Shown here in pieces: positions 166-43,666 of a stretch of DNA of 43,683 nucleotides (the stretch's first letter is position 1; every line of letters begins with the position of its first letter). Location: positions 1 through 43,683 of IMG/VR virus record IMGVR_UViG_3300029142_000007; one strand, given 5' to 3'. This DNA comes from a virus. Lineage: Duplodnaviria; Caudoviricetes. The position numbers and the translations under genes are program-made. Under the pieces are notes generated by a model. That model worked only from the letters and a program-made list of their open reading frames with translations. It was not told the origin of the DNA and ran no database searches.

Positions 166-996
166 TCAAGCCTTTAGTGGACGCCACCATGTCCAGTTAT
201 TACCTTCCATAAGAGTTGCAATTTGAGCAATTCTAGCCTCAGTTGATGGATGTATTAGGTTAGGACCTGCATTAAATGCCTCTAACATCATTCTAGTCAT
301 TTCAGTGATAGCAGGATGATGTAAGTCTGGATACAACTCCTGTAGTACTGTCTTGAGATTAGTAAATACACGAGTAGTTTCTTTTGGTGTCATAGGCCAA
401 TACAAACCAGACATACGATTATCTACGCCATGGGCACGATGTTCTATAGTCTTACTCTCACTAGTCTTAGCAGTCTGAGCATTGTAATAATCTTCTTCTT
501 TCTGCCGCTCCAAAGCTTCTTGGAATTTATCAGCTTTTTCTTGTCCAAGCATCTTAGCTACAATATCTGTAGGTATACCTGTGGGATCAGTAGGTTTGTG
601 GTAATGGGAATGACGGGGCGGTTGATAATCGTGCCTTACGGCGTCCTCGTTTACAGGCTCAGCCGACATATCAACCACCTTACCTTCAGGAGTGATCATG
701 ATGGGATCAATAGCCTTATGGGTAATAATGATAGACCCACTGTAGTGGCCAATCTGGCACTCTTTAAGAAGGTTAAGCAGTTGGCTTACAGGTGTTGTAG
801 CAGGAAGAGGGAGATCTTCTCTGCTAAGATCAGGATGTAGTTGATCAGGGCTGAAGATGTGAAGCATTCCTCGGCTTTGTTCATGATCTACAACATAACG
901 AGGCTTGCCTTGTACTGTCCAAAATTGCGCAACAATGTGACCGTCAAATGCATATCCTGTTACTTTGGAAACAGCTTGTCCGATTTTGAATTTCAT
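166..996 (-). CDS. Hypothetical protein with N-terminal DfrB/R67-DHFR-like SH3 domain
   Basis: N-terminal FKIGQAVSKVTGYAFDGHIVAQFWT...YVVDHEQSRGMLHIFSPDQL aligns by eye with R67 DHFR [25 protein letters not shown]...YAVESEAHPGSVQIYPVAAL. The rest is unrecognised. Confidence 0.55.
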   Translation of the reverse strand: MKFKIGQAVSKVTGYAFDGHIVAQFWTVQGKPRYVVDHEQSRGMLHIFSPDQLHPDLSREDLPLPATTPVSQLLNLLKECQIGHYSGSIIITHKAIDPIMITPEGKVVDMSAEPVNEDAVRHDYQPPRHSHYHKPTDPTGIPTDIVAKMLGQEKADKFQEALERQKEEDYYNAQTAKTSESKTIEHRAHGVDNRMSGLYWPMTPKETTRVFTNLKTVLQELYPDLHHPAITEMTRMMLEAFNAGPNLIHPSTEARIAQIATLMEGNNWTWWRPLKA

Positions 997-1286
997 TTTG
1001 CCTGTCCTTCTGTTCTGGATATATTATGGTAAAGTTTCATACGATCTTCTGCATCTTTGATCTCTGCATCATTTGTAGTTAAAATATCCATACGATCTTT
1101 GTTGAAGCGGTTGATTGAAGCTTGTAAGTCAGTTAGCTCACGATTAATCCGCTGAAGATTAGTTATTCCGGGGTTGTCTGGATGAAAGTTGTATATGCCA
1201 AAGCGTATAGCTTTATGGCACTCTTGTGCAACTTCTGTAGCCTCTTCTGCGATTTGCAAAAGTTTGTATTGGATCTCTGATAGCAT
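993..1286 (-). CDS. MazG-like nucleotide pyrophosphohydrolase
   Basis: Acidic motif pattern AEEATEVAQECHKAIRFG...RELTDL is typical of small phage MazG-like proteins. Confidence 0.7.
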   Translation of the reverse strand: MLSEIQYKLLQIAEEATEVAQECHKAIRFGIYNFHPDNPGITNLQRINRELTDLQASINRFNKDRMDILTTNDAEIKDAEDRMKLYHNISRTEGQAK

Positions 1287-1290
1287 GATT

Positions 1291-1485
1291 TTATTCCCTT
1301 GGGTCTGTGAAGTCGTTTAATTCTTCAACTGCTTTCTGATAGGACACAACGAAGTAATCTCGGCCTTTATATTTGCGAACAGCTATGGCCTTAACTTCGT
1401 ATCCGTCGATGCCTTGGAACTTACAATCACTATCGAAAGCTTTGACTGTGCTGTAAGTCTTTACTCTGGAGTGGTATTTGATCAT
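1291..1485 (-). CDS. Hypothetical protein
   Basis: 64 aa, AGGAG SD, start coupled to the upstream stop (TAATG). Confidence 0.65.
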   Translation of the reverse strand: MIKYHSRVKTYSTVKAFDSDCKFQGIDGYEVKAIAVRKYKGRDYFVVSYQKAVEELNDFTDPRE

Positions 1486-1763
1486 TACATCTCCTGTAGT
1501 TCGATATAGATGAAAACGTCGTCGTATTTCATGTAAATTCGGCTGCTGTTTTCATCATGAATGATAGTTGGATTAGTTCCCATCACGAAATATCGATTAT
1601 GAGCTTCTTGAAGAGGTGCCATATGATAATAGAACAACCTTTTCATGATTTTGGCTCTTTTCAATCGCTCTACAAGTGGTGTAATAGCAGCGCAAAAGTG
1701 CTCAAAATACTCATGGTCTTTGTCTGGTAGGACTGGGAACATTTCTTTAGGAAGTTTGTCCAT
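1485..1763 (-). CDS. Hypothetical protein (start reassigned to ATG 1763, MDKLPK...)
   Basis: AGGAG SD sits 5 nt before ATG 1763. The longer TTG start at 1871 lies at about the predicted transcription start. Confidence 0.6.
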   Translation of the reverse strand: MDKLPKEMFPVLPDKDHEYFEHFCAAITPLVERLKRAKIMKRLFYYHMAPLQEAHNRYFVMGTNPTIIHDENSSRIYMKYDDVFIYIELQEM

Positions 1764-1879
1764 TACATCTCCTGTAGTTGACGAAAAAGGGCCCCGCACA
1801 TGCCAGAAGCAATAGCGGGACCAAGTTTGTTGCGATCGAGTTGGGAAGGCGGGAGGAGATTTCCTTTCCAACTAAATAT

Positions 1880-1908
1880 ATTGTAACTTACGGTTGTATA
1901 ATTGTCAA
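1880..1908 (-). promoter_or_regulatory. Sigma70-type promoter, leftward
   Basis: TTGACA-N17-TACAAT on the minus strand in the AT-rich divergent intergenic region. Confidence 0.75.
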
Positions 1909-2195
1909 CCCACAACCTACAACACCTGTAGCGGAGGAACATTTCAAAGAAATGTAAAAAATAACCAACAATAAAATAAAATAATGAAAATTTTTCTGTA
2001 AATGGAAGGGTGGGTGGGGATGATTGTAGAATAGACCTATACCCTATCGGGTGAGTTTTTTCTGAATAATGACTAAGTTCCTTTTTATAGCATACTTCCG
2101 AGAAATAAGCAACCCTTTCAATTGACTATTTTTGATAACTGTGTAACTATTACCATGTTGCAACGAACTACAAGACTTGTAGAAGGAGTAAGAAA

Positions 2196-2537
2196 ATGGG
2201 ATATTCTGATATCAATGGTCCCGATTATACACCTGCTGTAGATCGCACTCCTCTGCGTTATAGCATTTCAAACGTCTTTGAGCGTATGCCTGAAGATCAA
2301 GAAGTGCTTTATACGCTAATTGGTGCGGCTCCGGGTGCGCTTGCACAGGCAAATCGTCCGCGTGTCCAGCATTCTCAGACTGAACTTGGTGGTGTTCGTG
2401 TTATCGAAAATCATTACAAGGTCAACCGGAATACGACTGCTGATGATGTGACTGCAATGCAGGCAATGGTCAACCGTTCTAGCCGCATTCCTCTAGCGGC
2501 AAACAAAGCTGGCCTATTTCTTGGCAAAGCAGGTTAA
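2196..2537 (+). CDS. Hypothetical protein, first gene of the late/morphogenesis operon
   Basis: 113 aa with AAGGAG SD. Confidence 0.75.
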   Translation: MGYSDINGPDYTPAVDRTPLRYSISNVFERMPEDQEVLYTLIGAAPGALAQANRPRVQHSQTELGGVRVIENHYKVNRNTTADDVTAMQAMVNRSSRIPLAANKAGLFLGKAG

Positions 2538-2539
2538 TT

Positions 2540-2564: not shown

Positions 2565-2580
2565 TACTACAGGAGTTGTA

Positions 2581-3198
2581 ATGACTAAATTTCTTGCAGA
2601 CCCCGATGATCCACTCGTGACAGCTGATGGCGAAGTGTATTCTAGTGGGAACAAAGAAGCAGAGCTGACTACAGAAGTTGTAGAGATAGTAGTTCCTGCG
2701 AAAAAGCTTACAGCCTCGATGCAAAGAACCATTCGAGATTTTCCGGCTGCTACTCCGAATGAGCAGACGATTGTTAATGTCGTTATGGTATTCCATTTGC
2801 TCGGAATGAATGAAAACGAAATGTCGCACCATCTTGGTGTGTCTATCCAGCATGTCCAACAGATCAAAGAGTCTCCAGCTTTTCAGGAAACATATGATCT
2901 GCTCTTCCAAGAAGTTCTCGAAAACAATCGTACAAGTGCTGTAGCAAAGATTAATGCTGCGGCTTCTCGTGCTGTTGATAAGATGATTGAGCTTGTAACA
3001 GATGAAGAGGCTCCTGCAATTGTGCAGATGAAAGCTTCTGAGAATGTTATGAACCGCGCTGGTTTGTCAGAAGATAAACTGCATGGGAAGCATCGCACAG
3101 ATGATAGTGATCAGGTTTTGCACATTGTTATTGATGATGGTGAGCGAAATGCAGGTCCAAGTATTAACATAAACTTCGGAAACAAAGATGGCGAATAA
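2581..3198 (+). CDS. Putative terminase small subunit
   Basis: Directly upstream of and overlapping terL. HTH-like segment (MNENEMSHHLGVSIQHVQQIK) followed by a helical region. Confidence 0.6.
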   Translation: MTKFLADPDDPLVTADGEVYSSGNKEAELTTEVVEIVVPAKKLTASMQRTIRDFPAATPNEQTIVNVVMVFHLLGMNENEMSHHLGVSIQHVQQIKESPAFQETYDLLFQEVLENNRTSAVAKINAAASRAVDKMIELVTDEEAPAIVQMKASENVMNRAGLSEDKLHGKHRTDDSDQVLHIVIDDGERNAGPSININFGNKDGE

Positions 3199-7786: not shown

Positions 7787-7788
7787 AA

Positions 7789-8745: not shown

Positions 8746-8753
8746 GAGGTATC

Positions 8754-14485: not shown

Positions 14486-14486
14486 T

Positions 14487-25300: not shown

Positions 25301-25793
25301 CCCACTGTATCCAACAGTAGGCCAAATCATTGTTGATCGTATTGGTCGGAATGATGATGGTATGACAGGGTTGGCTGCTCAATACTCTGTCCTGTCTCGT
25401 CAGCTTAAACTACTAAAACGGTATAGTGCAGGAAACAAGGAAGCGTTCCGTGAGTACCAAAAGTGGTTCAATAATATTGACGAAAGAGAAGAACAAGCTC
25501 TGGCAAACTTGGGTGAAGAGCCATCCAAGAAAGCGGTACAGAAAGTACGCCGAGCGTATAAAGAAGAACGGATGATCAAGGATATCTACGATGAGCTTGA
25601 AGTTGATTTAGGTGATCGTGATAGTGTTATTCGTTTGATTGACTACTTTGAAGGTGAGAGGAATAAAACACTTCAAGCCCAAGTAGATCTCATGGAAAAG
25701 GTGGAGCTGGATATAACCAAGATGCTCCACCAACAAGGTATGCTTCCACCTAATGAGACTTTTTCAATTGAGCGTCATCTGAAGCCCTATTGA
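22308..25793 (+). CDS. Large internal virion / DNA-ejection protein
   Basis: 1161 aa helical protein, last gene of the structural operon, in the usual position of the largest ejection protein. Confidence 0.72.
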   Translation: MADPNTQSPFPELDDFERQLRELEEFAQEEVTLPTDEVYRGTLLPFEKNMTTGDVGLAIPGAIQGMLDAASLPGRVVSGELPLDPTNPLATPDIIPEVTNLGLEMVGIGWAPKMSTRTVNAMKLKKQPPAPVVRPVKDINSNAPQDLETLETASDLYKAYVVDEKSTLSGIAERAGVPAQDDLQKLIDLDTQASAMMRVGEASRSGRLKTFAGEFNSPIAPDTLRREYLSLPEASQQAIDEYLKLGDFIDDMNLRIRQNIKPDETQRALATARQRRADLEQIEPLTIQFADQYRQVTSAVRDFMASGNNAMLSEKQLQALNMDRQNYVPIDIFGIDRSQPLLSRMAEAFQPQRQRSLDDWFLQSRDIESIENIGDRTNAIDALVDYTRSALRYKMENDVRGSYIDAIQNSRYGRNTIIQMDADEVADTTGRVVEVYKNGERTKYVSSKLQAELLKFDPYLAQYPAVFGLKRLFEHGTTGVLSLTFAPTTMIRDAIAGMVFSPPGTKGPGLETVTAPFRQLAAKTQIATAQLLQNEFRHIPFLDNTTRQSWARNLSDRYARGFYHTANEAGGFDASLMKTNIRSGRGVLREVAQSWDDLATRHPMLAATVRTPAAFLQGFARMYDAIQEAPRFATFINNVKAGADPADAVRLAKNLTGDTTRSGRVSNPAGQRITADVASRGQRGSDLAEIAAGPIGRAVEFGRETIPYVNPTVQGMRRLATRFAEDPVGVSSRAWMYVGMPTMLAEGWNNMLGPEYTHYAHEQRTERDQTMNMYIGVPGQDPRFGIEVPLPHELVMWHAPFSRLVGEMSRSAEPVRDAIMASGRNIFENVGMLGYPVFGTQMFAATGNTAPDSVMNPFQEVFERREDYSSFLPENVELMLRSAFGGITNTNVMVLGSLFEGGPSAMLEEFGHQMAARTPIVKNVLGKKTRSTAFTPVWTERNKKMEAYDQFREIWDAHYNPDRVGNRLRSRKMPSMKDIMDPTSIVAAAPNPIAPPKNPLYPTVGQIIVDRIGRNDDGMTGLAAQYSVLSRQLKLLKRYSAGNKEAFREYQKWFNNIDEREEQALANLGEEPSKKAVQKVRRAYKEERMIKDIYDELEVDLGDRDSVIRLIDYFEGERNKTLQAQVDLMEKVELDITKMLHQQGMLPPNETFSIERHLKPY

Positions 25794-25798
25794 TTATC

Positions 25799-26335
25799 TC
25801 ATTTTCCTCGTCTAGAAGCGGGACGTTTCCGCTTAGCACTGTCTTTGGATATTCGTCGCGGAGTAGGCTCGTCGCTCTCCACGTGATCGCTGGCCTCCGC
25901 GACGTCTTGATTGAGAACTTCTGTACCCACTTCTTCTCCAGCCACTCCTCCAGTATCTCCAGTATCTGATCCCTCGTCCAGATCTTTGTTCGAGTTTTCT
26001 GGATTAGCATGTTCTGCGTCATCCCCGTCATTCCTTGCGAGATCAGATGCTGTCTCAGTTTCGCGTGGAACTTCTGCGTTGCTATCGGACCGTGGGCCAA
26101 CTTCCATTCCTTTCTTTGTTTCGATGTATTCCAAAATTGTTGATGGGTAAGTGTTGATGAATTGTAGGATGAGTTCTGATGCTTGTCGTCTAGCGGCATC
26201 ACTCTCTACAACTCCTGTAGCAAACATTTGTAGAGACTCATGTAACTCAGCTGATGCTTCAGCAAACTCAGCTTGTTCTCTTGTGTCAAAAAAGACACCC
26301 TGAGCTGTTATGTATCCTGAGGCTTCTTGTACCAT
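25799..26335 (-). CDS. Hypothetical protein
   Basis: 178 aa. GYITAQGVFFDTREQAE N-terminal motif, acidic linker, basic tail. Confidence 0.7.
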   Translation of the reverse strand: MVQEASGYITAQGVFFDTREQAEFAEASAELHESLQMFATGVVESDAARRQASELILQFINTYPSTILEYIETKKGMEVGPRSDSNAEVPRETETASDLARNDGDDAEHANPENSNKDLDEGSDTGDTGGVAGEEVGTEVLNQDVAEASDHVESDEPTPRRISKDSAKRKRPASRRGK

Positions 26336-29848: not shown

Positions 29849-29908
29849 ACCTCCCGTAGTACAAGTTGATTAAGATTAAGAGGAACAGGCTTTCCACACT
29901 TGTGACAC

Positions 29909-30803: not shown

Positions 30804-31006
30804 CAGAGTAACATCCCTTTGTTATCTAGCTCAATAATCTCTTTGAGCTTGAAGCCTGCTTTCTTCAATTCAATGATTTGATGAAGGCGATCATTTCCAT
30901 CTTCAAAATGATAGTTAACATTAGGCAAGTAAACACCTGTACTCTTTCCAGTACTATCATGAATTAAGAAATTATCATCGATTTGAATGGATATAGTTTT
31001 CATCAC
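30803..31006 (-). CDS. Hypothetical protein
   Basis: 67 aa, coupled starts and stops, GGAGG SD. Confidence 0.55.
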   Translation of the reverse strand: MMKTISIQIDDNFLIHDSTGKSTGVYLPNVNYHFEDGNDRLHQIIELKKAGFKLKEIIELDNKGMLL

Positions 31007-32970: not shown

Positions 32971-33385
32971 CCTCAGTTTCCCCTTTTCTAAAACCAATCT
33001 CAACCAACTCATTGAGATCAATTTGTTCCATTGTTGCTTTGTGTTGAAGAGTGTATCGTTGCTGTTCTCGATGTTCAGCTATGACCTCATAATCTCCAAC
33101 CTCACCATCATCCTTGATACCTACAACACTTGTACCAACTCCTCCATTTATCATGATGAGCAAATAGTTACTCATGATTGGATAGGCTTCAATTACGTTC
33201 TTCTCGAACACTTCAGCCCAAACAAAGTCGATACCTGCCGACATGACACAAGCTCTAACTTTGAACATACCAGCGTCTCTGGTTATTACAGTGCATAAAA
33301 TAGGGGAACCATCTGGAAGGGATGCAAGTTTGTCACCTACAGTAAATTGGGAAATGCCTGTTTCAATTTGATGGTACTTTTTCAT
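32954..33385 (-). CDS. Hypothetical protein
   Basis: 143 aa with GAGG SD. Confidence 0.65.
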   Translation of the reverse strand: MKKYHQIETGISQFTVGDKLASLPDGSPILCTVITRDAGMFKVRACVMSAGIDFVWAEVFEKNVIEAYPIMSNYLLIMINGGVGTSVVGIKDDGEVGDYEVIAEHREQQRYTLQHKATMEQIDLNELVEIGFRKGETEDGIQS

Positions 33386-33402
33386 AGTAGTTTCCTCTGA
33401 GA

Positions 33403-33435
33403 GTTGCAGCGGGAGAAGAGGCTCCCCCGCTACAA
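33403..33435 (-). other. GC-rich hairpin after the SSB-like gene
   Basis: GCGGGGGAG-CCTCTT-CTCCCGC on the minus strand. No clear U-tract. Confidence 0.45.
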
Positions 33436-33444
33436 GTGTTGTAA

Positions 33445-33882
33445 TTAGGTGTCAGCGTTGTCGATTGCAGCAATCTCAGGACGCTTTTCACCTTGCCACT
33501 CACCCATCTTCAGGTTGAGCTTAACCTGATTACCTTCCCACTGATTGTGGTCAATGGTAGATGTTGCGAGGGACAGACCCAGAGCACGATACCACTTCTT
33601 CATCGCTGTAATCGAACGACGATTGGTCATGTCGAGTGCCTGAAGGCGGCTGTAGACCAGCTTTGTACCTTCCGGGTTATTCTCAACATCGTAATCTGCC
33701 GGGTAAGCTTCGGTCGGGATTTCGAATACTACGTAGTAGTACTCATTGTTGTTCTCCGACACACGCTTATCAACTTCAGCGATAGTCGCAATGTAGTTAC
33801 CCGCCGGAAGCGGCTCAAAGTCTTCAAACTCTTCGAGATTGCGCTCAAGTTGTGTGATATCTGCTTCGGTTTCTGTACTCAT
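33445..33882 (-). CDS. ssDNA-binding protein (DUF669-like)
   Basis: FEPLPAGNYIATIAEV...YYYVVFEI motif. Acidic. Adjacent to the Sak4-like ATPase. Confidence 0.72.
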   Translation of the reverse strand: MSTETEADITQLERNLEEFEDFEPLPAGNYIATIAEVDKRVSENNNEYYYVVFEIPTEAYPADYDVENNPEGTKLVYSRLQALDMTNRRSITAMKKWYRALGLSLATSTIDHNQWEGNQVKLNLKMGEWQGEKRPEIAAIDNADT

Positions 33883-33940
33883 TTCAAAATTCCTCTAGTT
33901 GTTACAAATGTTGTAGTTGGCGTGAGCAGTTTCCATCCTT

Positions 33941-34747
33941 TCATTGTGGTAGAGCCAACTTCTTTCTACCTTGTTCTTGCCACGTTCTGATCCAGACAGT
34001 GAGACTGTGTGGTTGTGTCTCATCATCAGCCTCTGGATCATATTTCAACACGAATGATGACTTCTTCTTTTCCGCATCAAACATCCGTGTTTTCATAGGG
34101 GATCTGTTTCGAGCGGGACGCAAGTACACTGTCCGCACATCATCCACATCCTCCATGTACCATACCTCTGAGATTTTGAGCCCTACGTCATTGTTAGCCT
34201 TGCCACCGAGCATCATTGTCCAAGAGATGACTTGTCCTTTTTCGTTCGATCGATCGTCGCCTTCGTGAGTAGTAAACCAACAATGTTTCTTTACAACTGC
34301 TGTAGCTTTGAGGATGTTGGACACTGCACGTAAGATGTACTGGCGACGCGCACCGTACGCAGTCTGTCCCGGTTCCTCGATTGTTGGCTTGAAATTCTTT
34401 CCCGCACCTGCGTTGTTTTTGACTGCTATGTTCAAGCCCTTCTCGGCAAGAATAGTTAAGCTGTCTACTACAACACTAGCAAACTTATCTCCATTTGCTT
34501 GGATGTACTTTGGTACATCTGTATGCATTGCATCCATCATGTTTCCGTCAGCCATCTCATACATTCGAAGCACGAGGAAGTCATCGCTTTCGGGCAAGCT
34601 TGCATCACCATCTGGATCAAGCATCACAAACAAAATGGGTTTGGGCAGGGATTGTAAGAAGGTTGTCTTTCCGGCACCAGCTCTACTCCAGAGAATACCT
34701 GTCGATCGAACTTGCTGGTTCTTTGTCGTTTCTACTGGTGGCATCAT
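33941..34747 (-). CDS. Sak4/AAA_24-like ATPase (ssDNA annealing/recombination)
   Basis: SRAGAGKTT Walker A, VVVDSLT Walker B, FTTHE and KTR. Confidence 0.8.
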   Translation of the reverse strand: MMPPVETTKNQQVRSTGILWSRAGAGKTTFLQSLPKPILFVMLDPDGDASLPESDDFLVLRMYEMADGNMMDAMHTDVPKYIQANGDKFASVVVDSLTILAEKGLNIAVKNNAGAGKNFKPTIEEPGQTAYGARRQYILRAVSNILKATAVVKKHCWFTTHEGDDRSNEKGQVISWTMMLGGKANNDVGLKISEVWYMEDVDDVRTVYLRPARNRSPMKTRMFDAEKKKSSFVLKYDPEADDETQPHSLTVWIRTWQEQGRKKLALPQ

Positions 34748-34749
34748 TC

Positions 34750-34977
34750 TTAGTTTCCTTTTCCCGCTCGAATGTCTTGCGGGTCTGTTGTCTTAGAAGC
34801 TACAATACTTGTAGCGAGGTTTTTAATCAATCGAGTTTGTTCACTATGCAACAAAGTTGTAAGATCACTAATTGCATCATACACAGTAGTTTTACCTGCT
34901 GTTACGTCGCTGTGTACTCCCTCCAGATACGAGATCACGCTAAGTGTCTCTCTTGCCAGCGTTTTAGATTTTTCCAT
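34750..34977 (-). CDS. Hypothetical protein
   Basis: 75 aa, within the operon. Confidence 0.55.
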   Translation of the reverse strand: MEKSKTLARETLSVISYLEGVHSDVTAGKTTVYDAISDLTTLLHSEQTRLIKNLATSIVASKTTDPQDIRAGKGN

Positions 34978-35176
34978 CCGATTTACCTATGTACTTGTAG
35001 CCGATGATTGTCGGCGGTTTTATCCTCTTGATTGGTGCGTCAACAACATCCTCTTTATACACGCTTTTCATTGCTTTTTCAAGCCCCCTGCGCAAATCAA
35101 TCTCAGTCATACCTATAGGCTTTACGACCCTAACTGTCAAGTGTACTTCTTCAAAGAATTTTTTAGCCATCACCAA
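34964..35176 (-). CDS. Hypothetical protein
   Basis: 70 aa, within the operon. Confidence 0.5.
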   Translation of the reverse strand: MVMAKKFFEEVHLTVRVVKPIGMTEIDLRRGLEKAMKSVYKEDVVDAPIKRIKPPTIIGYKYIGKSDGKI

Positions 35177-35388
35177 TCCTGATCGTCGATTTGGTCCCCA
35201 AGCTCAATTTCATCCTCGACTACATCACCTGTAACAAAGACCTTCGACAGTGGCTCAAGTCCATACTTCTCTTGAATAGTCTTAACTACTTCAGGAGTAT
35301 GCGTTTCGAGCCCTAAGGTCCTATCCTCGTTGTATATGAAGATACCAAGCCCATGTGCATCCATCTGGATCTTAAACGTTTGGCTCAT
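35170..35388 (-). CDS. Hypothetical protein
   Basis: 72 aa, ATGA overlap with the nuclease stop. Confidence 0.55.
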   Translation of the reverse strand: MSQTFKIQMDAHGLGIFIYNEDRTLGLETHTPEVVKTIQEKYGLEPLSKVFVTGDVVEDEIELGDQIDDQDW

Positions 35389-36470
35389 TTAATCTCTGCC
35401 TTTGCAAGTTTGCGCTCAATCTCAAGCTGACTTGGAGACTTTGGAGCTGGTTCCATATCTTCAAACATCCACTGTTGCTCAACTTTGGTGCCTGCACACA
35501 AGTCTACAAATCCACATGGGTTATAATACCGATTGCATGAATGAGTAAACATAGGAGAGTTAAGCACATCGTCTTTGTATTGCATGTAAAGATTGTGTGC
35601 GTAATTGATTGTATCCAACCATTCGAGTTTCTTGTCATTGTCCCTCCACGCTTCAAAAGCTATGTAATCTTCATGATTGCCTGTTTGTTTGACCTTGATA
35701 CCAAGTATCCTAGTCTGCTCAACTACAAGACCTGTAGTCATTTCTGACATGACCATGTATCCTGTGGGTTGCTGTGACACTTCGAATGCTCGCCGAAACG
35801 CATCATCCAACCGGGATGCTGTCTTGAGTTCTTCGAGTCTAAGAGACTTGCCATCAGCACGTACACTAATACCGTCAACAGTGCCGATATAAATAAACTT
35901 TTCATCAACGACGATCGCCCATGTGTTCTCAATGCCTACAGCACTTGTAGGATCATTTTCGTCTTCTACCCAAATCTGATTACGATCCATCGTTGCCCAC
36001 TGCTCTTTTACAAAGCGAAGTGTAGCTTCTTCAAGGTTCGCAATTGTGCGGTTCTTATCTCGGGGATCATCGTAGAACGTACCAGTGTGGATCGTACCAA
36101 AGCAAAGCATCTCCAGCTCATTGCGTGGGTCACGTTTCTGGTCCGTAGCTGTCTTTAGAATAGTCTCCCATCGATTGGGATACTCTTCTGTATTAAACAG
36201 TCGTTTGCCGTGATAGGCTGCATGATCTTTCAATCCTTGTTTACGCCAAAGTTGCCAAAGACGAATAGAACTGAAGACCTCATGCATCGCGCTTCCAGCT
36301 TCTAGAGCCATCGCACGATAATTAGTTTTGAAATACAGTCCCTTCATGTATCGAATGATACCCCATTTGGGACAAGTTAGAATTGCTGTGGTAATGCTGT
36401 GTGAGTACACTGGCATCCCACTATCAAAGTCTGCTTTTGTAGCAAACCGTACACGATCACGATAATTCAT
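35385..36470 (-). CDS. PD-(D/E)XK nuclease (RecB/AddB/Cas4-like exonuclease)
   Basis: SHS...TCPK, GSAMH, GTVD...EELKT...Q...Y and C-terminal C..Y..C....C Fe-S-type cysteines. Start set at MNYRDR. Confidence 0.8.
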   Translation of the reverse strand: MNYRDRVRFATKADFDSGMPVYSHSITTAILTCPKWGIIRYMKGLYFKTNYRAMALEAGSAMHEVFSSIRLWQLWRKQGLKDHAAYHGKRLFNTEEYPNRWETILKTATDQKRDPRNELEMLCFGTIHTGTFYDDPRDKNRTIANLEEATLRFVKEQWATMDRNQIWVEDENDPTSAVGIENTWAIVVDEKFIYIGTVDGISVRADGKSLRLEELKTASRLDDAFRRAFEVSQQPTGYMVMSEMTTGLVVEQTRILGIKVKQTGNHEDYIAFEAWRDNDKKLEWLDTINYAHNLYMQYKDDVLNSPMFTHSCNRYYNPCGFVDLCAGTKVEQQWMFEDMEPAPKSPSQLEIERKLAKAEIK

Positions 36471-36691
36471 AGTTCTGCACTCGCTGTCCACATCATTCCA
36501 CCAAGATCAAAAGTTAGTATCTTTTTATGAGCATCTACGGTTTCAACACTAACAAGTTTTCCTGTATAAATGCCCGGAGGTAGAATATCATCACGCAGAG
36601 CTTGAATCTTCATCAAGTTGGATGCTGTTATGGCTACAGGTGCTGTAGCTCCTATCCCTAGCAAGAATTTACGTCTGCTTAATAAAGTCAT
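36467..36691 (-). CDS. Small protein with twin-arginine-like N-terminus
   Basis: MTLLSRRKFLLGIGATAPVA. Confidence 0.55.
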   Translation of the reverse strand: MTLLSRRKFLLGIGATAPVAITASNLMKIQALRDDILPPGIYTGKLVSVETVDAHKKILTFDLGGMMWTASAEL

Positions 36692-36992
36692 GCCGAGCAT
36701 TCCTCTCATAGTGAAATTGGTTATCACGCTCAACTTGTTGAAGTTGTCTCAGTATAGTTTCTACTGTGTATCGTTGAGCAAAAGCTTCAACAATCGACTT
36801 CAAGTCGTAGTCATACTGATTAAGTTGTTTGCGTATCTCTGATGGCATCTCATCGAACAGGTCAAAGTATGTCATACCGGGCCAAAGGTGGATCACTTCT
36901 ACAGGAGATGTAGAGGGGATATCACGGTACACAGGTATGTCATAAGCACGACTTATCTGTACCGGAACCTGTCCCGATGGGATTGCCATCAC
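36669..36992 (-). CDS. Hypothetical protein
   Basis: 107 aa, within the operon. Confidence 0.55.
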   Translation of the reverse strand: MMAIPSGQVPVQISRAYDIPVYRDIPSTSPVEVIHLWPGMTYFDLFDEMPSEIRKQLNQYDYDLKSIVEAFAQRYTVETILRQLQQVERDNQFHYERNARHDFIKQT

Positions 36993-37297
36993 TCATCCTT
37001 TGCAAGATTTTGGTGCGTAACCATATCCATAGCTGGATCTTTGAAGTCAGCATCAAACTTCTTATCCATCTGTTTAGCCTGCTCAATTGACTGAGCAATC
37101 TCTGGATTAAGTTTGGCTAACAAAATGAAAGCCTTCATCAACTTCTGATTGATTGCTTGCTGCTGATTAATAGCTCTCTGCATATCAAAAAGCTGAAGGT
37201 TCTGCTCTGCAATGATTGTAATTGCAGCTTGCGGCATAGTTCCTCGAAGGGCTTTATGAATATCTTCAACCGTACGGCCAACAATATCGACGGGCAT
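36989..37297 (-). CDS. Hypothetical coiled-coil protein
   Basis: 102 aa, AGGAG SD inside a palindrome copy. Confidence 0.65.
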   Translation of the reverse strand: MPVDIVGRTVEDIHKALRGTMPQAAITIIAEQNLQLFDMQRAINQQQAINQKLMKAFILLAKLNPEIAQSIEQAKQMDKKFDADFKDPAMDMVTHQNLAKDE

Positions 37298-37543
37298 TTA
37301 CATCTCCTGTAGGTGAAAGTGTCGAATAGACGCGGAGTTGTATGTAGGATAGACTTCACCTATGAAGGCATGCAATACCCAAACAACGATACCAGATATT
37401 ACAGCATGGAATATCAACTGTCGGTCAAATGTCAGTATACCTACAACACTTGTAACCAGAAAGTACGCCCATGCTCCTACATACAACAACATTGTCTCAC
37501 TCTTTTCTATCTCTGCAAAACCTATACAGATCTTTACTGTCAT
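37298..37543 (-). CDS. Hypothetical membrane protein
   Basis: Two hydrophobic segments. Confidence 0.5.
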   Translation of the reverse strand: MTVKICIGFAEIEKSETMLLYVGAWAYFLVTSVVGILTFDRQLIFHAVISGIVVWVLHAFIGEVYPTYNSASIRHFHLQEM

Positions 37544-37685
37544 ATGGTAACTTCTCAGCCTGCCAATATGCTCTCATATCTTCTACACAAGCATCACCTG
37601 CTACATAGAAAAACACTCGATAAAGGACTCCTGCAAAAGCAAGTAAGCTGATAATTATCAAGAACACCGTAAAACCTGTTTTCAT
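37497..37685 (-). CDS. Hypothetical membrane-anchored protein
   Basis: N-terminal TM segment. Confidence 0.5.
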   Translation of the reverse strand: MKTGFTVFLIIISLLAFAGVLYRVFFYVAGDACVEDMRAYWQAEKLPYDSKDLYRFCRDRKE

Positions 37686-37689
37686 GGTC

Positions 37690-37905
37690 CTATCCTTGAA
37701 GCTTAATCATCTCAATCAACATGCCTCGCTGTACAGGTTCTTTTGCTATCGCGTAAGCTTGTCGAATGTAGATGAGTGGAGTTTCATCCAGATTGTGCTT
37801 TGGATCACCAATGCTATACAAAAACCGAGCCAGCATCTTAATAGATGGGTCCGCCTCAATGGCTCGGGCAATTGCTACATTCTGGATATGCTCTTCATTA
37901 GTCAT
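37690..37905 (-). CDS. Hypothetical protein
   Basis: 71 aa, GGAG SD. Confidence 0.55.
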   Translation of the reverse strand: MTNEEHIQNVAIARAIEADPSIKMLARFLYSIGDPKHNLDETPLIYIRQAYAIAKEPVQRGMLIEMIKLQG

Positions 37906-38194
37906 TCATTTTCTCCGCCGTCTGAATGTCATCTTCAACTACAGCCATTGTAGCTAGATCTTTCTCAATTGCTGTAATCATTTCATCCATCTTAGCGAGT
38001 TTCTTCTTCACACGCTCAGAAGCATTTTCCCACTTCTTGTGTGCAGCAGTCCCTTTCTTGACGAACTTCTTCTTCTCAGAGCTAAGGTACTCTTGAGATA
38101 GCAGATTACGATTTGCTCGCACCTCTTCAAGATGCGTTTGATATTCTTTGGCAGTCGCTGTACGAATATCTGGAGCAGTGAATAACTCAGCCAT
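37898..38194 (-). CDS. Hypothetical basic coiled-coil protein (start reassigned to MAELF)
   Basis: GGAG SD before ATG 38194. This start avoids the overlap with the WYL-like ORF. Confidence 0.6.
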   Translation of the reverse strand: MAELFTAPDIRTATAKEYQTHLEEVRANRNLLSQEYLSSEKKKFVKKGTAAHKKWENASERVKKKLAKMDEMITAIEKDLATMAVVEDDIQTAEKMND

Positions 38195-38462
38195 TTTGAG
38201 GCTCCACATAAATTGTTTCGTAAGCAATGTCCCGCAAAGCGAAACTACGAGTTTCCATCTTATCGTGATCAAATGCCTCAAGAAAGTACTGTGGGTCTTT
38301 GTGCCACTGTGTAGACCCATACCATACTTTGTGAGGGCTGACTGTTCGCGTAAGAGTTTCCTCTCTATGATTTTTGTAAGTGAATGACATTTTACTTGTC
38401 TGCCACTGAGGCATAAGCAAAGCAAACAAAAATCCTAGGGCTGCTGCGTTGTCGTTATCCAT
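38187..38462 (-). CDS. Stand-alone WYL-like domain protein
   Basis: FTYKN...TRTVSP...QYFLEAFDHDKMETRSFALRDI matches the WYL pattern Y...R.V.P...WYL.A.D.....R.F...I. Confidence 0.68.
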   Translation of the reverse strand: MDNDNAAALGFLFALLMPQWQTSKMSFTYKNHREETLTRTVSPHKVWYGSTQWHKDPQYFLEAFDHDKMETRSFALRDIAYETIYVEPQNG

Positions 38463-38835
38463 CGAGGTTCCTCTCTACAGAAGTTGTAGTGCGTTGCTTA
38501 GGTTTGATACGAGCTTGCACAACCAGAGCACGTAACTCAGGCTTGGAGATGTTATACTTCTCAACAAGCAACTCAACGAATTTCTCTACATCAAACTCTT
38601 TCCATTTATCGGTCTGACGTTCGACATAGAAACCCGGAGTTTCTACACTGAATTTGTCTTTTTGGGGAAGGACTTCTTTCATTGCTGCTTTGGCCAAATC
38701 TTTACGATTATCAGCAACCTTGGCAATGAAATTCCAGATGTAGTAACTCTCAATCACTGCATCTTTATTCTTTTTGTGCTTCTGTTCGGCTTCTTTGGCC
38801 AACTCTTCTAGAGCACTTGCGATCGCTACAGACAT
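38455..38835 (-). CDS. Hypothetical protein
   Basis: 126 aa, GAGG SD. The start codon lies inside a palindrome copy. Confidence 0.65.
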   Translation of the reverse strand: MSVAIASALEELAKEAEQKHKKNKDAVIESYYIWNFIAKVADNRKDLAKAAMKEVLPQKDKFSVETPGFYVERQTDKWKEFDVEKFVELLVEKYNISKPELRALVVQARIKPKQRTTTSVERNLDG

Positions 38836-38852
38836 TGTAGTTTCCTCTCAGC

Positions 38853-39089
38853 TTAAACCCACCTATAGCCTTTGGTGGCATGAAGCCTCCACGGCCAATT
38901 CCTTGTTTCCAAGAGCTTGTTCCACTTGATCAAAGTGGTACGTCTCGGGTTTTTACTCCGGACAAACTGACGCGGGTTCTGAGGGATGTTACACAAACCT
39001 ATGCTACTAGCACGTAGGTCCATCTTTGGTTTCTTTTTGAGATAATGTTTCCGCACTTTCGTCTCCATATCTAACAGTGATTTTCTCAT
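38853..39089 (-). CDS. Hypothetical basic protein
   Basis: 78 aa, start uncertain. Confidence 0.45.
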   Translation of the reverse strand: MRKSLLDMETKVRKHYLKKKPKMDLRASSIGLCNIPQNPRQFVRSKNPRRTTLIKWNKLLETRNWPWRLHATKGYRWV

Positions 39090-39288
39090 GTGGAGTACTG
39101 GTCACTCTGTCCAATACACCATTTCCGTAACAGTTGAAGTAGGTTCCTTCAGACACGTCTTTGTTATAGTGTGTCCAAATACGCCAGCATTGGTCGATGG
39201 GGTTCCATTCAAGAAATGGCTGCTGACGATCAATCAATCCTACTCTCAATTTCCTTCGTGCTACAGGAGTTGTAGTTTCCTCGCTCAT
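39007..39288 (-). CDS. Hypothetical protein (start MSEETTT)
   Basis: GAGG SD, just downstream of a predicted promoter. Confidence 0.55.
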   Translation of the reverse strand: MSEETTTPVARRKLRVGLIDRQQPFLEWNPIDQCWRIWTHYNKDVSEGTYFNCYGNGVLDRVTSTPHEKITVRYGDESAETLSQKETKDGPTC

Positions 39289-39314
39289 GTGACCCTCTTT
39301 CGTGATCATTCTTA

Positions 39315-39344
39315 ATAATAACCCAACACCCTACAAAAAGTCAA
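39315..39344 (-). promoter_or_regulatory. Sigma70-type promoter, leftward
   Basis: TTGACT-N18-TATTAT with an AT-rich UP-like tract. Confidence 0.55.
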
Positions 39345-39468
39345 TAAATAAAAATATCAACAATTTGTAGGTGTAGGGCGCGGGCATGGCGCGTTATGTC
39401 CTGTGTGGTGCAGGACGTACCTCTCCCTGTTGAGGTACGTACGTACGTATCACATCGCAGAGCTAAAG

Positions 39469-39699
39469 TCAATCGGTCCAGTCAATTTGCATAACCCTTT
39501 CTACAAGTGTTGGATTAGCTCGCAAGATTGCCGCAAGAGATGCAGCATTATGCCAGTATTGCAACTCTGTCCGATAGCTGAAATCTTTCACTAAGAGCTC
39601 TCGTAACAGATATTCTGCTTCATATTGGTTAGCATCTTCTTTGTCGTCAAAGATCGTGCCATCTGTAGTTTCGTACCTAGTTACTGTTTTAACAAACAT
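39469..39699 (-). CDS. Hypothetical protein (start MFVKTV)
   Basis: YETTDGTIFDDKEDA motif. AGGAG SD inside a palindrome copy. Confidence 0.6.
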   Translation of the reverse strand: MFVKTVTRYETTDGTIFDDKEDANQYEAEYLLRELLVKDFSYRTELQYWHNAASLAAILRANPTLVERVMQIDWTD

Positions 39700-40025
39700 G
39701 GATACAACTCCTGTAGCCAATGTTTCGTGTCATTACCCTCTTGATAATTGACTTCACCTGTATCACTAGTCAACCGAATGCATACATCATGCGCGATTGC
39801 ATTCAATTCTTCATGCATTTCAGGAGCCATCATAATCATCTCTTGCTGAATGCCAAGGTTTTCTTTAATCTTCTCATAGAGGTAGTTGATTATAACCTTC
39901 TGCACTACAAGACTTGTAACGCATATCTCTCCAGCGAACAGCAGCTCAACAGCTTTGTTCAAGTCATCCCGAAACTGTTCATCTGATTTACAGCCACAAG
40001 GGGCAGGGAGTGTTAGCTTTCTCAT
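39681..40025 (-). CDS. Hypothetical protein
   Basis: 114 aa, ATGA coupling. Confidence 0.55.
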   Translation of the reverse strand: MRKLTLPAPCGCKSDEQFRDDLNKAVELLFAGEICVTSLVVQKVIINYLYEKIKENLGIQQEMIMMAPEMHEELNAIAHDVCIRLTSDTGEVNYQEGNDTKHWLQELYPCLLKQ

Positions 40026-40432
40026 GTTGCTTTGTCCTTGTTCCTTTGAGCAAGTGCTACAAGTGCTGTAGTATCTACACCTAAACTCTGTAAGTCTTGC
40101 ACTTGTTCATGAAAGCTATGGCTTTCAATTGCATACGCATTCCAAAACAAATTTTGATCATGCAAAGACATAATAGCCCGCAAGAATTTATAACCGTCTG
40201 GATCACCTGTTTGGCCGCCCTCAACAGCACCAAAACGCTTTTGGATGTATGGAATTGCACTATCCAAGGTAGCTGCTGCATCTAGAGGATTTAGGTCAAG
40301 TAACCAACCAACAGCACAATGACGGTCTGAAGGTCCATTAAATAGACAAGTGCCTTCCATATCTGAGCATTGCCCATCTTGAGCAATCATACGATCCAGC
40401 ACATAATCAAAAGCTTTCTGATATTCCAACAT
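40022..40432 (-). CDS. Hypothetical phage protein
   Basis: AFD....M..Q...C...C.VG.L pattern of small early phage proteins. AGGAG SD. Confidence 0.65.
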   Translation of the reverse strand: MLEYQKAFDYVLDRMIAQDGQCSDMEGTCLFNGPSDRHCAVGWLLDLNPLDAAATLDSAIPYIQKRFGAVEGGQTGDPDGYKFLRAIMSLHDQNLFWNAYAIESHSFHEQVQDLQSLGVDTTALVALAQRNKDKAT

Positions 40433-40581
40433 CGCTTTTCTCCTACAGTACTTGTAGTGACTTCATTGTCACCCACAATGCTAAACCCATTATACCACAT
40501 GAGGCATAGATATACACCTTGATAACTTTGCGCGTGTACGGATGCATATCAATGTCTCCTGTTATTCAAAAGGTTACAAAT

Positions 40582-40614
40582 ATAGCGGGGATAACACTAC
40601 ATCATCCCCGCTAT
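40582..40614 (-). terminator. Hairpin, probable terminator after the 285-aa gene
   Basis: ATAGCGGGGAT...ATCCCCGCTAT 11-bp stem followed by ATTTG on the minus strand. Confidence 0.6.
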
Positions 40615-40622
40615 GTACTGGA

Positions 40623-41480
40623 TTAGATGTTTTCATCTATCCGGGCTTTGAGGTTCTGAAGCTGTTTCTTCATTCCCTTGGTAAGCTTGCCCTCTTGTGC
40701 GACCATTGCGCGGATCACACGATTACACAGTGCGCCAAACTCTTCATCTGACATTCCAAGTTTTGCTTCATCGCGCTCACCTTCGCCACCTTTTGCGGCA
40801 GGCTTTGGCTTGTGCTTTGCAGTGGCAACTTTCACAAGGCTTGCCATTGTCGGGGAATGCGTTGCACCTTCAACCGCTGTACGTCCACCGATTGCAACTG
40901 TCCCTTGTTCGCCACCAATTTCTTTTGGAGCGTTTGCAATGACAGGCACAAACTCACCTGCATCATTCTTTTTATAGGACAGATCACTAGGTTTACACCC
41001 GGAGTCAATCAGTGCCGCCGTTGCTTTGCAAGCCTCTGCAAAACGCTGGTTTAGCCGCTTACGGTTCTTAAACCGCTTGTTGTATTCATCCGGGTTTTCC
41101 TGTTTCAGATCCGCCGTATAAGCATAGAGTGCTTCAACGCGCTTGTCAGTCCATTTGTAAATGACTTCATCGTCTTCAGTCATGGTGCGGGTCTGAACAC
41201 CCATCGCAACAAGCAACCGTGTGTTGAGTTTCTGAACGTCGCCGGGCTTGCCAAAGATAGAAAACACGTCAATGTTGTTCTTCTTTGCATTTGCCAGTTC
41301 GAAAACAGCTCTTGCCATTTCAAACTGGATGTTGCCTTTTGCGTCAGTGACGGCGGCGGCTTTTTGCTGCAACTCTTCATCGATAGCTGCAACGGTTACA
41401 AGGTTGACAAGAAAGTCATTGCCAAACTCAGCAGGAACCTTTTTGTCAAAGGCTTTAATTTCAAGATCAGTACCAGTCAT
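40623..41480 (-). CDS. Hypothetical protein, probably abundant (own promoter and terminator)
   Basis: 285 aa, Lys/Ala-rich, GAGG SD, monocistronic layout. Confidence 0.8.
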   Translation of the reverse strand: MTGTDLEIKAFDKKVPAEFGNDFLVNLVTVAAIDEELQQKAAAVTDAKGNIQFEMARAVFELANAKKNNIDVFSIFGKPGDVQKLNTRLLVAMGVQTRTMTEDDEVIYKWTDKRVEALYAYTADLKQENPDEYNKRFKNRKRLNQRFAEACKATAALIDSGCKPSDLSYKKNDAGEFVPVIANAPKEIGGEQGTVAIGGRTAVEGATHSPTMASLVKVATAKHKPKPAAKGGEGERDEAKLGMSDEEFGALCNRVIRAMVAQEGKLTKGMKKQLQNLKARIDENI

Positions 41481-41546
41481 TTTCTTTCCTCTACAACTTC
41501 TGTAGTTTCCAAACTAGATCACACCTCTATGTGATCTACGCTAGAA

Positions 41547-41575
41547 ACTATGACACACAATTGCGCGTGTGTCAA
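41547..41575 (-). promoter_or_regulatory. Sigma70-type promoter for the 285-aa gene
   Basis: TTGACA-N17-CATAGT overlapping an inverted repeat TGACACAC...GTGTGTCA. Followed by a leader hairpin TAGATCACA...TGTGATCTA. Confidence 0.55.
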
Positions 41576-41583
41576 ATTGTTTC

Positions 41584-41847
41584 TTACTTTTCCACACGAT
41601 CAAGCTTGAATGCTTGACTGTATTCCTCTCCAGCGTTGATACGCCTAACAAACTTGTCACGTTCCTTTTTCGTGCTGAAACCATACAATCCCGGTTGTGT
41701 CACTACAGATGCTGTAGTATCGCATTCATGTATACCATCTGCACCTTTGTCAATGCTTGCTGTCACAAGCCCGTCACGTAGTTCATAGCTTGAACCCGGT
41801 CCTACCATTGCGAAGTAGGGATATTGTAGGTTAGCTGGAAAATGCAT
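41584..41847 (-). CDS. Hypothetical protein
   Basis: 87 aa. Confidence 0.55.
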   Translation of the reverse strand: MHFPANLQYPYFAMVGPGSSYELRDGLVTASIDKGADGIHECDTTASVVTQPGLYGFSTKKERDKFVRRINAGEEYSQAFKLDRVEK

Positions 41848-41954
41848 TTCATAAACCTTTCATTCGTTGGGAGATGGGGAGGGGGAAACCACATGCCTAA
41901 CCTACCACTAAGGAACACGCAAGCCTGCACTATGGTCAACGCCCTCACCACTAC

Positions 41955-42392
41955 TTATATCGCTGTCCTAACAGCTCTAATATCATCTCCATCATGAACC
42001 ATCGTATCTGATACAACTGCTGTAGTCCATACAATCGTATCTTGAAACATATGCAGCTTAGTAACTTTAGCTATGCGACTAGCCTTTAATCGCGCATTCT
42101 GCTCTTGCACATCTGCATTATACGTCCCTGTTTGTTCAACAAGATATGACTTCAGTTGGTGAATTTCACTCTCACCTAAATCAGCTTTGACAAGTACAAC
42201 ATGATAACCGCGCTTGTCAAGTATAATAGCTATGAATTTATCACTAGTCATCTTATCATCTCCTGTACGCAGAATGCACGATTGACCATCGCCATACTGG
42301 CTACCATTGACACTTTCAGATACACTACATCTCATGTAGTACATTTGAAAGCGGACAGGTGACACTAGGGTCTTTGGGGCAATGAGCGCCAC
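41955..42392 (-). CDS. Hypothetical protein (start uncertain, possibly MTSDKF)
   Basis: ORF in the early region. AGGAG precedes an internal Met. Confidence 0.5.
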   Translation of the reverse strand: MALIAPKTLVSPVRFQMYYMRCSVSESVNGSQYGDGQSCILRTGDDKMTSDKFIAIILDKRGYHVVLVKADLGESEIHQLKSYLVEQTGTYNADVQEQNARLKASRIAKVTKLHMFQDTIVWTTAVVSDTMVHDGDDIRAVRTAI

Positions 42393-42420
42393 CTGTCCTA
42401 ACTCTAACGCTGTTGGGACG

Positions 42421-42693
42421 TTAGAGGTTTCTGATCAGTGCATTAAACTCAGCACCAATACCAACATTGCGGAAACGATCTCCAGCTTTGACCATGCGAG
42501 GCATTGTCTGTGTATCACAGGCTGTTTGTGCCTTTTCCGATAGTACAAACTTCTCACATGCAGCGGCGAAGTTTTCCTGAATATTTGACCGCGCTTCCAC
42601 TGCTGCTGTCTGTTCAGGGATATTCTCTTCTGCTGACAGTGCTACAGATGTTGTAGATACGAGTACAGCCATTGCGATAACAAGATTTTTCAT
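42421..42693 (-). CDS. Secreted/periplasmic small protein
   Basis: Sec signal MKNLVIAMAVLVSTTSVALSA and two Cys. Confidence 0.65.
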   Translation of the reverse strand: MKNLVIAMAVLVSTTSVALSAEENIPEQTAAVEARSNIQENFAAACEKFVLSEKAQTACDTQTMPRMVKAGDRFRNVGIGAEFNALIRNL

Positions 42694-42733
42694 TATTCCA
42701 TTCCTCTATTCAAGTTATGTAGTTACTACACAG

Positions 42734-42913
42734 TTACACAGTTGCGACGCTTTTAATGCGCTCTTCTGATTGAGGCACAACAAGGACACTACCGGCCATT
42801 GCTTCCGCCCTACGTTTGGCTGCTTTCTGCGTATTATCCGCAAGTTGAAGTGTTGCAATGCAACTTCCCTTCACAAACAGGCCAAATGTATACATATACT
42901 TTGCTTGTTCCAT
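42734..42913 (-). CDS. Small early ORF missed by the track (59 aa, MEQAKYMYTF...)
   Basis: GAGAGGA SD and an open frame to TAA at 42734, just downstream of a predicted promoter. Confidence 0.55.
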   Translation of the reverse strand: MEQAKYMYTFGLFVKGSCIATLQLADNTQKAAKRRAEAMAGSVLVVPQSEERIKSVATV

Positions 42914-42948
42914 AGTCCAATCCTCTCATTGGCTTATCAACTACAGGT

Positions 42949-42978
42949 ATTGTAGTCTAAATTGGGGTAGAAAGTCAA
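42949..42978 (-). promoter_or_regulatory. Sigma70-type promoter whose -10 lies inside a palindrome copy
   Basis: TTGACT-N18-TACAAT. The -10 overlaps CTACA-N5-TGTAG at 42941-42955. Confidence 0.6.
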
Positions 42979-43176
42979 GAAATATCTCTTATTATTTTCT
43001 CGTTTCTACCCCAAATTGCACTACATTTGCTGTGCTATGGGATAATAACCAGTGATATTGTACCTTTCTCTATGGTGCAGCTACAGATGTTGTAGCTACA
43101 GGCCATTTTGGTGCAGTGTTAGCAAGAGATAGTGGTCGGTCAGGTGCAAGCCCGCTTCCCAGTCTCACGCGTGAGA

Positions 43177-43374
43177 TTATTGTGGTATTGCTATAAACTT
43201 ATAGCTACAACATTTAGCTACTGGCAACGATGCAAGACATTCCTCTGCATCTTCATAGTTATCATGCTCTACCCATTGATTGATACTACTTTCTTTCACC
43301 TTCCAACATACTATGAACATGTTGCTTTCAGTGGCCATCGCTTCAGCCCATTTGAATATTGTGCTACCGTCCAT
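43177..43374 (-). CDS. Hypothetical protein
   Basis: 65 aa, weak support. Confidence 0.4.
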   Translation of the reverse strand: MDGSTIFKWAEAMATESNMFIVCWKVKESSINQWVEHDNYEDAEECLASLPVAKCCSYKFIAIPQ

Positions 43375-43666
43375 TTGTCTTGTCTCTCTCTGTGTCTCTC
43401 TATGTTTATGACTATACGCCTACAGCACTTGTAGTACTACCAACCATAGGTTGAAAATGCACTTTTTTCGGTTGTATTTGCATTTTATTTTATATGTGGA
43501 TAAACATGTGGATAACTATCATCGCGCAAGTTGGCATGGATCTTGCTACTACAAGACCTGTAGTGCTGTTGCTTATTAGAAGCATTCTAAAGTGTTTCAT
43601 GTGAAACATCATGCCCCCTACTCCCCCCGTTTCCAAAAGCCGCCCCCGTGACTGCTTCCGCCGCCG

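Follow-up and report, generated by a model that had tools for sequence, protein, structure and literature searches.

A gapped palindrome, CTACA-N5-TGTAG, is repeated from end to end through the genome of a podophage-like virus (IMG/VR record IMGVR_UViG_3300029142_000007), and it is real, strongly selected and found throughout a family of such viruses. The whole record of 43,683 nt was analyzed and is referred to as the window, to which all coordinates refer. With near-matches included, the window contains 91 sites (56 exact copies, 34 copies with one mismatch and one copy that retains only the core), and the palindrome is denser and more evenly spread than in the published cases. We tentatively propose, with a confidence that falls somewhat short of even, that the 91 palindromes are binding sites of an early protein of 285 amino acids (p285), which would coat the whole phage DNA and mark it as self.

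The sites start at positions 331, 558, 786, 1064, 1485, 1670, 1763, 1917, 2168, 2227, 2567, 2669, 2930, 3774, 4724, 5332, 6407, 6900, 7431, 8240, 9010, 9320, 9491, 10071, 10284, 10741, 11281, 11830, 12474, 13209, 13368, 14665, 15674, 16089, 16770, 16894, 17020, 17440, 18152, 18941, 19266, 20334, 20661, 22043, 22459, 22690, 23194, 23590, 24325, 25252, 26206, 26801, 27577, 28243, 28891, 29194, 29462, 30190, 30710, 31271, 31741, 32766, 33121, 33430, 33902, 34291, 34800, 35220, 35723, 35936, 36634, 36899, 37298, 37441, 37939, 38475, 38826, 39261, 39702, 39905, 40057, 40443, 41491, 41703, 42011, 42325, 42642, 42941, 43081, 43420 and 43549. A preliminary description of the sequence had reported at least 56 exact and more than 30 single-mismatch copies, with the mismatches mostly on the outermost C/G; the counts agree with this (30 out of 34 one-mismatch copies differ at the outer C/G) and every coordinate quoted there is a site. 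The core TACA-N5-TGTA occurs 87 times in the window compared with 0–3 times at other spacings, and no copy of CTACA-Nk-TGTAG was found in the window at any of the 15 other spacings (0–4 and 6–15). The spacer is thus fixed in length, as had been described, but its sequence is not free as had been assumed: it follows the consensus R-S-W-S-Y (R 150/174, S 140/174 and W 160/174, strand-symmetrized), and the full site is thus the 15-bp palindrome cTACArswsyTGTAg.

The number of exact copies expected by chance is 0.049 for independent bases and 0.39 based on the observed half-site counts. Synonymous-codon shuffling of the genes gave an expectation of 1.2 copies (maximum of 5 in 500 shuffles) compared with 46 observed within genes. 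The 1000-fold enrichment claimed initially holds only under the crudest null (0.049) and the fair nulls give a 40- to 140-fold enrichment, while the two checks that had been proposed for it, a spike at a spacer of five alone and an excess over codon shuffles, both came out in favor of the motif. Nor is the motif an artefact of assembly, another concern raised at the outset, since six further records of the clade that shares the TACA core (the TACA clade) carry 35–83 cores each and contigs from three runs of one study match window positions 24000–43600 near letter-for-letter where they cover it, one of these runs possibly being the source of the record.

The majority of the sites (76 out of 91) are located inside predicted genes and 15 lie outside genes. 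Within genes, 68 out of 76 sites are read in the frame x-Thr(ACA)-x-x-Val(GTA)-x, a bias explained by the TAG stop codon that would be read in frame 0. The Thr-x-x-Val pattern is found 111 times in the proteins of the window compared with 63 expected (62–81 for other Thr-Val spacings), and this near doubling indicates that the DNA signal has altered protein sequences. The same excess was identified in five out of six TACA-clade genomes tested and in none of five genomes with other motifs.

The single preferred frame might also be taken as a sign that no protein reads the double-stranded site, the palindrome being a peptide motif, a by-product of codon use, an RNA hairpin or a target of modification. 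Many sites do encode Thr-x-x-Val in one frame and the arms can pair weakly into a stem of 5 bp (about −2.5 kcal/mol), but the synonymous shuffles, the 15 sites outside genes and the origin of the frame bias in the TAG stop make such explanations very improbable. An RNA hairpin is further at odds with the outer mismatches, where non-pairing C/A (38) is as frequent as wobble T/G (43), and with arms that do not co-vary. DNA modification, one of the roles suggested initially, is disfavored: methylases of the families PF01555 (N6/N4) and PF00145 (C5) are absent from all 25 family records (other methylase families were not searched across the relatives) and no methylase was recognized among the 72 open reading frames (ORFs) of the window.

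The spacing of the sites is even, as a regularity check proposed in the preliminary description confirmed. The coefficient of variation of the gaps between sites is 0.60 compared with 0.98 for random placement, and none of 10,000 random placements was as even. Gaps shorter than 100 bp are rare (2 vs. 16.8 expected), the longest gap is 1382 bp (2415 expected) and a site is no more than 400 bp away for 94% of the window (81% expected). The same holds when only long ORFs of six clade genomes are considered, where 5 out of 62 gaps fall below 200 bp and 16.2 would be expected. A site could be encoded without any amino-acid change at 88 protein positions of the window, of which 65 are used and 23 are unused. 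The unused positions sit near another site (median distance 102 vs. 325 bp, p = 3e-7), a comparison in which the used set is inflated by positions that the motif itself created. Across 17 core genes of seven clade genomes, 50 of the 74 site positions inside genes occur in a single genome and 8 are common to at least four genomes, with the reservation that gappy alignments may split some shared positions. Even spacing, saturation near existing sites and turnover together indicate that density and coverage, rather than position, appear to be under selection.

No helical phasing of the sites was found in the window, there is no orientation bias, and the profile remains symmetric after 447 clade sites are oriented by transcription. 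Neither a fixed promoter element near the sites nor a wobble preference was detected. Site density hardly differs between the early, middle and late arms, and only 16 out of 71 promoter-like sequences from 15 records have a site close by (7.4 expected). The palindrome is a symmetric signal in double-stranded DNA, and selection maintains its even distribution over early, replication and virion genes alike.

To follow the motif among relatives, a capsid search was used that found 394 viral contigs, of which 80 were kept. TACA-N5-TGTA is present at 0.8–2.1 copies per kb in 10 of the 80 contigs (L001–L009 and L068), and the remaining 70 contain 0–2 copies and mostly carry palindromes of their own instead. 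Among 22 fetched records, seven belong to the TACA type, nine carry GTGTGA-S-TCACAC, three carry a degenerate TGTRYGA-S-TCRYACA, and one record each carries GTTTGA-S-TCAAAC, CTTTAA-S-TTAAAG and GATTAA-S-TTAATC. The TACA-type records contain 38–84 sites each (with the variant tTACAA in G005), motif counts in reversed-sequence controls are 0–4, and four further complete records fit the family pattern. The palindromes of the sister lineages are odd-centered. Among loci with a length of 8 kb or more, a simple palindrome score is passed by 46 out of 54 from the family but by none of 33 from the outgroup (found via a 48%-identical capsid), and no iterated palindrome was found in three rebuilt outgroup records. 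The motif is a trait of a family of uncultured podophage-like viruses of approximately 45 kb in which each lineage has its own palindrome. In the non-TACA lineages the sites lie mostly in stop-to-start spacers, where they often double as Shine–Dalgarno sequences, and 9–39% of them are deep in genes compared with 47–76% in the TACA clade; a fully specified 13-mer may cost least in these spacers, or the placement may reflect regulation.

The preliminary description had also suggested a search among related phages for the motif and for a gene that co-occurs with it. In addition to the motif shared by the clade and the distinct palindromes of its sister lineages, the comparison revealed p285, which is encoded by an early gene (40623..41480, minus strand) and for which DNA binding is inferred. 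The protein is present in 24 out of 25 family records (16 out of 17 among records that were not found through p285 itself) and in all near-complete records that bear the motif and extend across the p285 locus; it is absent from all five outgroup records, which also lack the motif. Judged by sequence comparison, p285 diverges most sharply where the motif changes: its identity is 0.50 within the TACA clade and 0.15 to the GTGTGA class, a ratio of 3.3 compared with 1.1–1.9 for 20 other families. Residues R136 and N139–N144 are invariant in nine out of nine TACA-type sequences and 107 out of 150 homologues have a pI >9. A confident structural model predicts a long N-terminal helix, a compact core that contains a helix-hairpin unit (79–110) and a basic helix (130–159), and a C-terminal helical hairpin on a linker. 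No Pfam or PHROG family, PDB-sequence or fold match was found for p285 among the families listed and its profile matched no solved structure. PF25746 is a weak, under-threshold language-model neighbor (0.82 and 0.80) with which direct comparison gave no match. A tblastn search of 50,697 phage records with a GTGTGA-class p285 gave no match at E ≤ 1, the presence of Corndog in that collection being unchecked. Overall, p285 is the best candidate for the reader of the palindrome.

According to the proposed mechanism, dimers of p285 would bind the phage genome at intervals of about 500 bp, reading the site via the basic helix and/or the helix-hairpin unit, and the terminal helices of p285 might connect the dimers on the DNA. 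A few hundred bp around each dimer would be protected or organized. Most likely, the incoming phage DNA would be shielded against nucleases or silencers moving or spreading along DNA, whereas the host chromosome, almost free of sites, would lack this protection; feedback control by sites at promoters and ribosome-binding sites could be a secondary use. That a dimeric protein marks the whole genome had been suggested before p285 was known, and the symmetric profile, the absence of orientation bias and of an RNA-pairing signal, the even spacing, the saturation and the co-occurring phage gene support this part of the suggestion, while binding and the subsequent steps are inferred. A coat of p285 is favored over p285 as a repressor or timer, over another phage reader, over a host reader and over no reader at all. 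A wider version of the idea is possible but more doubtful than the coat itself: a genome-wide self-recognition code in which an early protein with a new fold would act on a lineage-specific palindrome, repeated every few hundred bases and reaching even into protein sequences, to form protective chromatin on phage DNA only, with protein and code rewritten together several times.

A nuclease from which such a coat could shield the phage DNA is possibly encoded by the window itself. A conserved gene of the replication region (35385..36491, minus strand; no Pfam match) probably encodes a PD-(D/E)XK-type nuclease, as its profile matches a distant phage carrying a gene annotated as such.

The position of some sites relative to genes and promoters raises the alternative that the sites are read by p285 for global, stoperator-like repression, in which it would block promoters and stall RNA polymerase genome-wide, either holding a non-integrated carrier state or serving as a timer that ends once replicating genomes have titrated the protein; we consider this unlikely, though not negligible. 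Window sites are found near gene starts in 16 out of 91 cases (6.9 expected). A sigma-70-like promoter consensus ahead of the p285 gene (TTGACA-17-CATAGT with an extended −10 TG; 41547..41575, minus strand) is followed by a palindrome copy (41491–41505) located between it and the ribosome-binding site, and a second such early promoter (42941..42978, minus strand) has its −10 hexamer inside the copy at 42941; both promoters are consensus matches only. In the p285 promoter, the −35 region also overlaps a 24-bp inverted repeat (41551–41574). The arms of this repeat are similar to the GTGTGA/TCACAC motif of the sister lineages, and a similar element occurs once in six other records.

Repressors accompany dispersed sites in known phages. 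The dispersed inverted repeats of phage phiC31 are named CIR. Its 41-kb genome (AJ006589) contains 15 copies of one perfect palindrome together with an annotated repressor; however, phiC31 is temperate with an integrase and has sixfold fewer sites, and sequence comparison gives no support for kinship of its repressor c (PF25746) with p285 (profile probability 0.3%). The Cluster A mycobacteriophages (L5, TipsytheTRex) contain many 13-bp stoperators genome-wide in short intergenic gaps and promoters (PMC9283540), and motif and immunity repressor are described as diverging together between lineages (PMC6550527), as p285 and its palindrome would. The sites of the sister lineages, which fill short intergenic gaps and ribosome-binding sites, are placed like stoperators, whereas the window sites are mostly in genes. 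Stoperators are asymmetric, need orientation by transcription and are bound by a monomeric repressor with a helix-turn-helix (HTH) and a Stoperator domain in temperate phages (PMC9283540), whereas TACA-clade sites are palindromic, unoriented and largely coding. Genes for lysogeny were not found: tyrosine integrase, resolvase-type recombinase and ParA (PF00589, PF00239 and PF13614) are absent from all 25 records, and a cI-like HTH is sporadic (5 out of 25 records, the window not among them). A capsid search of 185,579 species genomes returned a single match, and most promoter-like sequences have no site nearby.

Another phage protein could be the reader instead of p285, which we regard as improbable. 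The small terminase TerS (2581..3198, plus strand; phrog_2538, E = 2e-4), which has an HTH-like segment, might use the sites as dispersed signals for packaging or DNA selection, and a conserved ORF (25750..26202, minus strand; no Pfam match) appears winged-helix-like by eye from its alignment. Both are family-wide, and a palindrome copy (2567..2583, plus strand) whose spacer is the Shine–Dalgarno sequence of the small-terminase gene overlaps the start of TerS in the window, with a site within 65 bp of that start in 8 out of 20 records; the same layout recurs at 1485, 1763 and 37298. However, TerS and the winged-helix-like ORF persist in three out of three motif-less outgroup records, and their putative recognition helices vary inside the TACA clade, where the motif is constant (TerS identity 0.38). 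A third candidate is a ribbon-helix-helix-like protein (fold by eye) that is present in 19 GTGTGA-class records and varies with the sub-motif but could be found in neither TACA nor CTTTAA genomes. Its gene (L195:7727–8005 and homologues) lies between those for the single-stranded DNA-binding protein (SSB) and the helicase, matches DUF6290 weakly, and has strand residues that vary with the sub-motif. Two further observations concern the loci of these candidates: G004, G014, G017 and G026 carry 4–8 kb of extra genes between terS and terL in their gene maps, and two conserved genes overlap in different frames at 25750–26335 (minus strand), the winged-helix-like ORF (18 records) being nested in the acidic tail of ORF 25799–26335.

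The reader might also be supplied by the host, with the sites acting as decoys or docking sites for a regulator, a nucleoid protein or a defense factor and differing between lineages because hosts differ. Motif classes follow phage clades, and hence possibly hosts, and the GTGTGA-type arm resembles TGTGA, the half-site of CRP. The end of the window (43495–43608) also contains host-type motifs, with two perfect DnaA boxes (43495 and 43507) and a parS-like 16-bp palindrome (43593), one mismatch from the parS consensus, flanking the last motif copy; this cluster is not shared by 22 relatives. A strict form of the motif occurs 20 times in the 44-kb window but as single copies in 12 out of 401 bacterial genomes (0–4 per genome for the motif read backwards), all from one phylum, that of the bacterial assembly holding the outgroup capsid gene, so that the true host may fall outside. 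The site thus separates phage from host DNA well, and a chromosome-organizing host protein of the matS or HIP1 type, as suggested in the preliminary description, is disfavored. Even spacing is unnecessary for decoys and the divergence of p285 coincides exactly with that of the motif. A host reader is therefore rated as improbable, marginally more so than a different phage reader.

The closest published case, by analogy, is the Cluster O mycobacteriophages (Corndog), in which a 17-bp dyad repeat occurs 34 times and integrase and parAB are lacking; their authors conclude that the role of the sites lies outside transcription initiation (PMC4351075). These repeats resemble the present sites in being gapped palindromes with a fixed odd spacer, in more than 30 unoriented copies throughout a phage; about a third lie in genes, most are off promoters, and a dimeric binder is predicted with function unknown (PMC4351075). 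They differ in sequence and virus group and in clustering toward one end (PMC4351075), whereas the window has 91 evenly spread sites in 44 kb, mostly genic with amino-acid change, with turnover, a lineage-switched motif and a named candidate reader. The phenomenon is therefore not undescribed, as had been claimed, although the literature search did not find the family, its motifs, the motif switching or the candidate reader in print. Lytic Microbacterium phages of clusters EC, EF and EG have repeats just upstream of gene starts and no integrase, like the sister-lineage layout, but with 5–12 copies in intergenic gaps of some regions only, without even genome-wide coverage and of unknown function (PMC7302621). 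In bacteria, matS/MatP of E. coli (PMC3330122) and cyanobacterial HIP1 (PMC5861425) are likewise short, selected, chromosome-wide palindromes tied to DNA organization; both are host systems, with matS at 23 copies per 800 kb (about 70-fold sparser than the window sites) and HIP1 an 8-mer with a 10- to 90-kb periodicity.

The record is estimated to be 95% complete. The plus strand encodes terminases, capsid, tail fibers, an endolysin and a protein with a weak match to Rz-like spanins, and the minus strand encodes a family A DNA polymerase, a RecD-like helicase, a Sak4-like protein and SSB. The polymerase (26936–29440) carries an N-terminal domain of the uracil-DNA-glycosylase superfamily, and no primase was recognized among the window ORFs. 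A stand-alone 91-amino-acid WYL-domain protein (38187–38462, minus strand; Pfam above cut-off) is located among the early genes and is shared with one relative only. No cultured relative was found. The tail fibers match those of Rhizobium and Stenotrophomonas phages, GAATC/GATTC (one copy) and CCAGG/CCTGG (none) are nearly absent from the window, and many 6-bp palindromes are avoided. GANTC is linked to alphaproteobacteria. The fiber matches and the near-absence of these two motifs suggest a proteobacterial host, and the avoidance pattern varies among the relatives, which suggests that they have different hosts. The same 17-mer is found as an inverted repeat at the two ends of the window (1–17 and 43667–43683); it is also a loose end at many internal places in the three runs, indicating a library primer of the random-amplification type and not a phage terminal repeat. 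Unrelated viral contigs in the pattern scan (L128, L148, L158, L092, L109 and L144) contain other abundant gapped palindromes or repeats, such as GTAC-N14-GTAC (23 copies in 20 kb), TCCT-N12-AGGA (23 in 17.5 kb) and GATC-N14-GATC (12–23 copies).

Dispersed palindromes in non-integrating phages have been unexplained since the description of Cluster O (PMC4351075). The present family makes the question testable in uncultured viruses: there is a single candidate protein, the motif has at least five natural variants, and the quantitative signature of the sites (even spacing, saturation, turnover and amino-acid cost) points to a coverage function over gene regulation. If p285 shields or organizes the DNA that carries its sites, this would be a strategy of self/non-self distinction by a bound protein and not by base modification or a shell; if p285 represses, it would be a case of stoperator-like control in a lytic-looking phage via an unrelated protein. 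Should the self-recognition code be true, the family would hold a natural set of orthogonal reader–site pairs. Either way, p285 may prove to be an additional DNA-binding fold whose specificity has been reprogrammed in nature.

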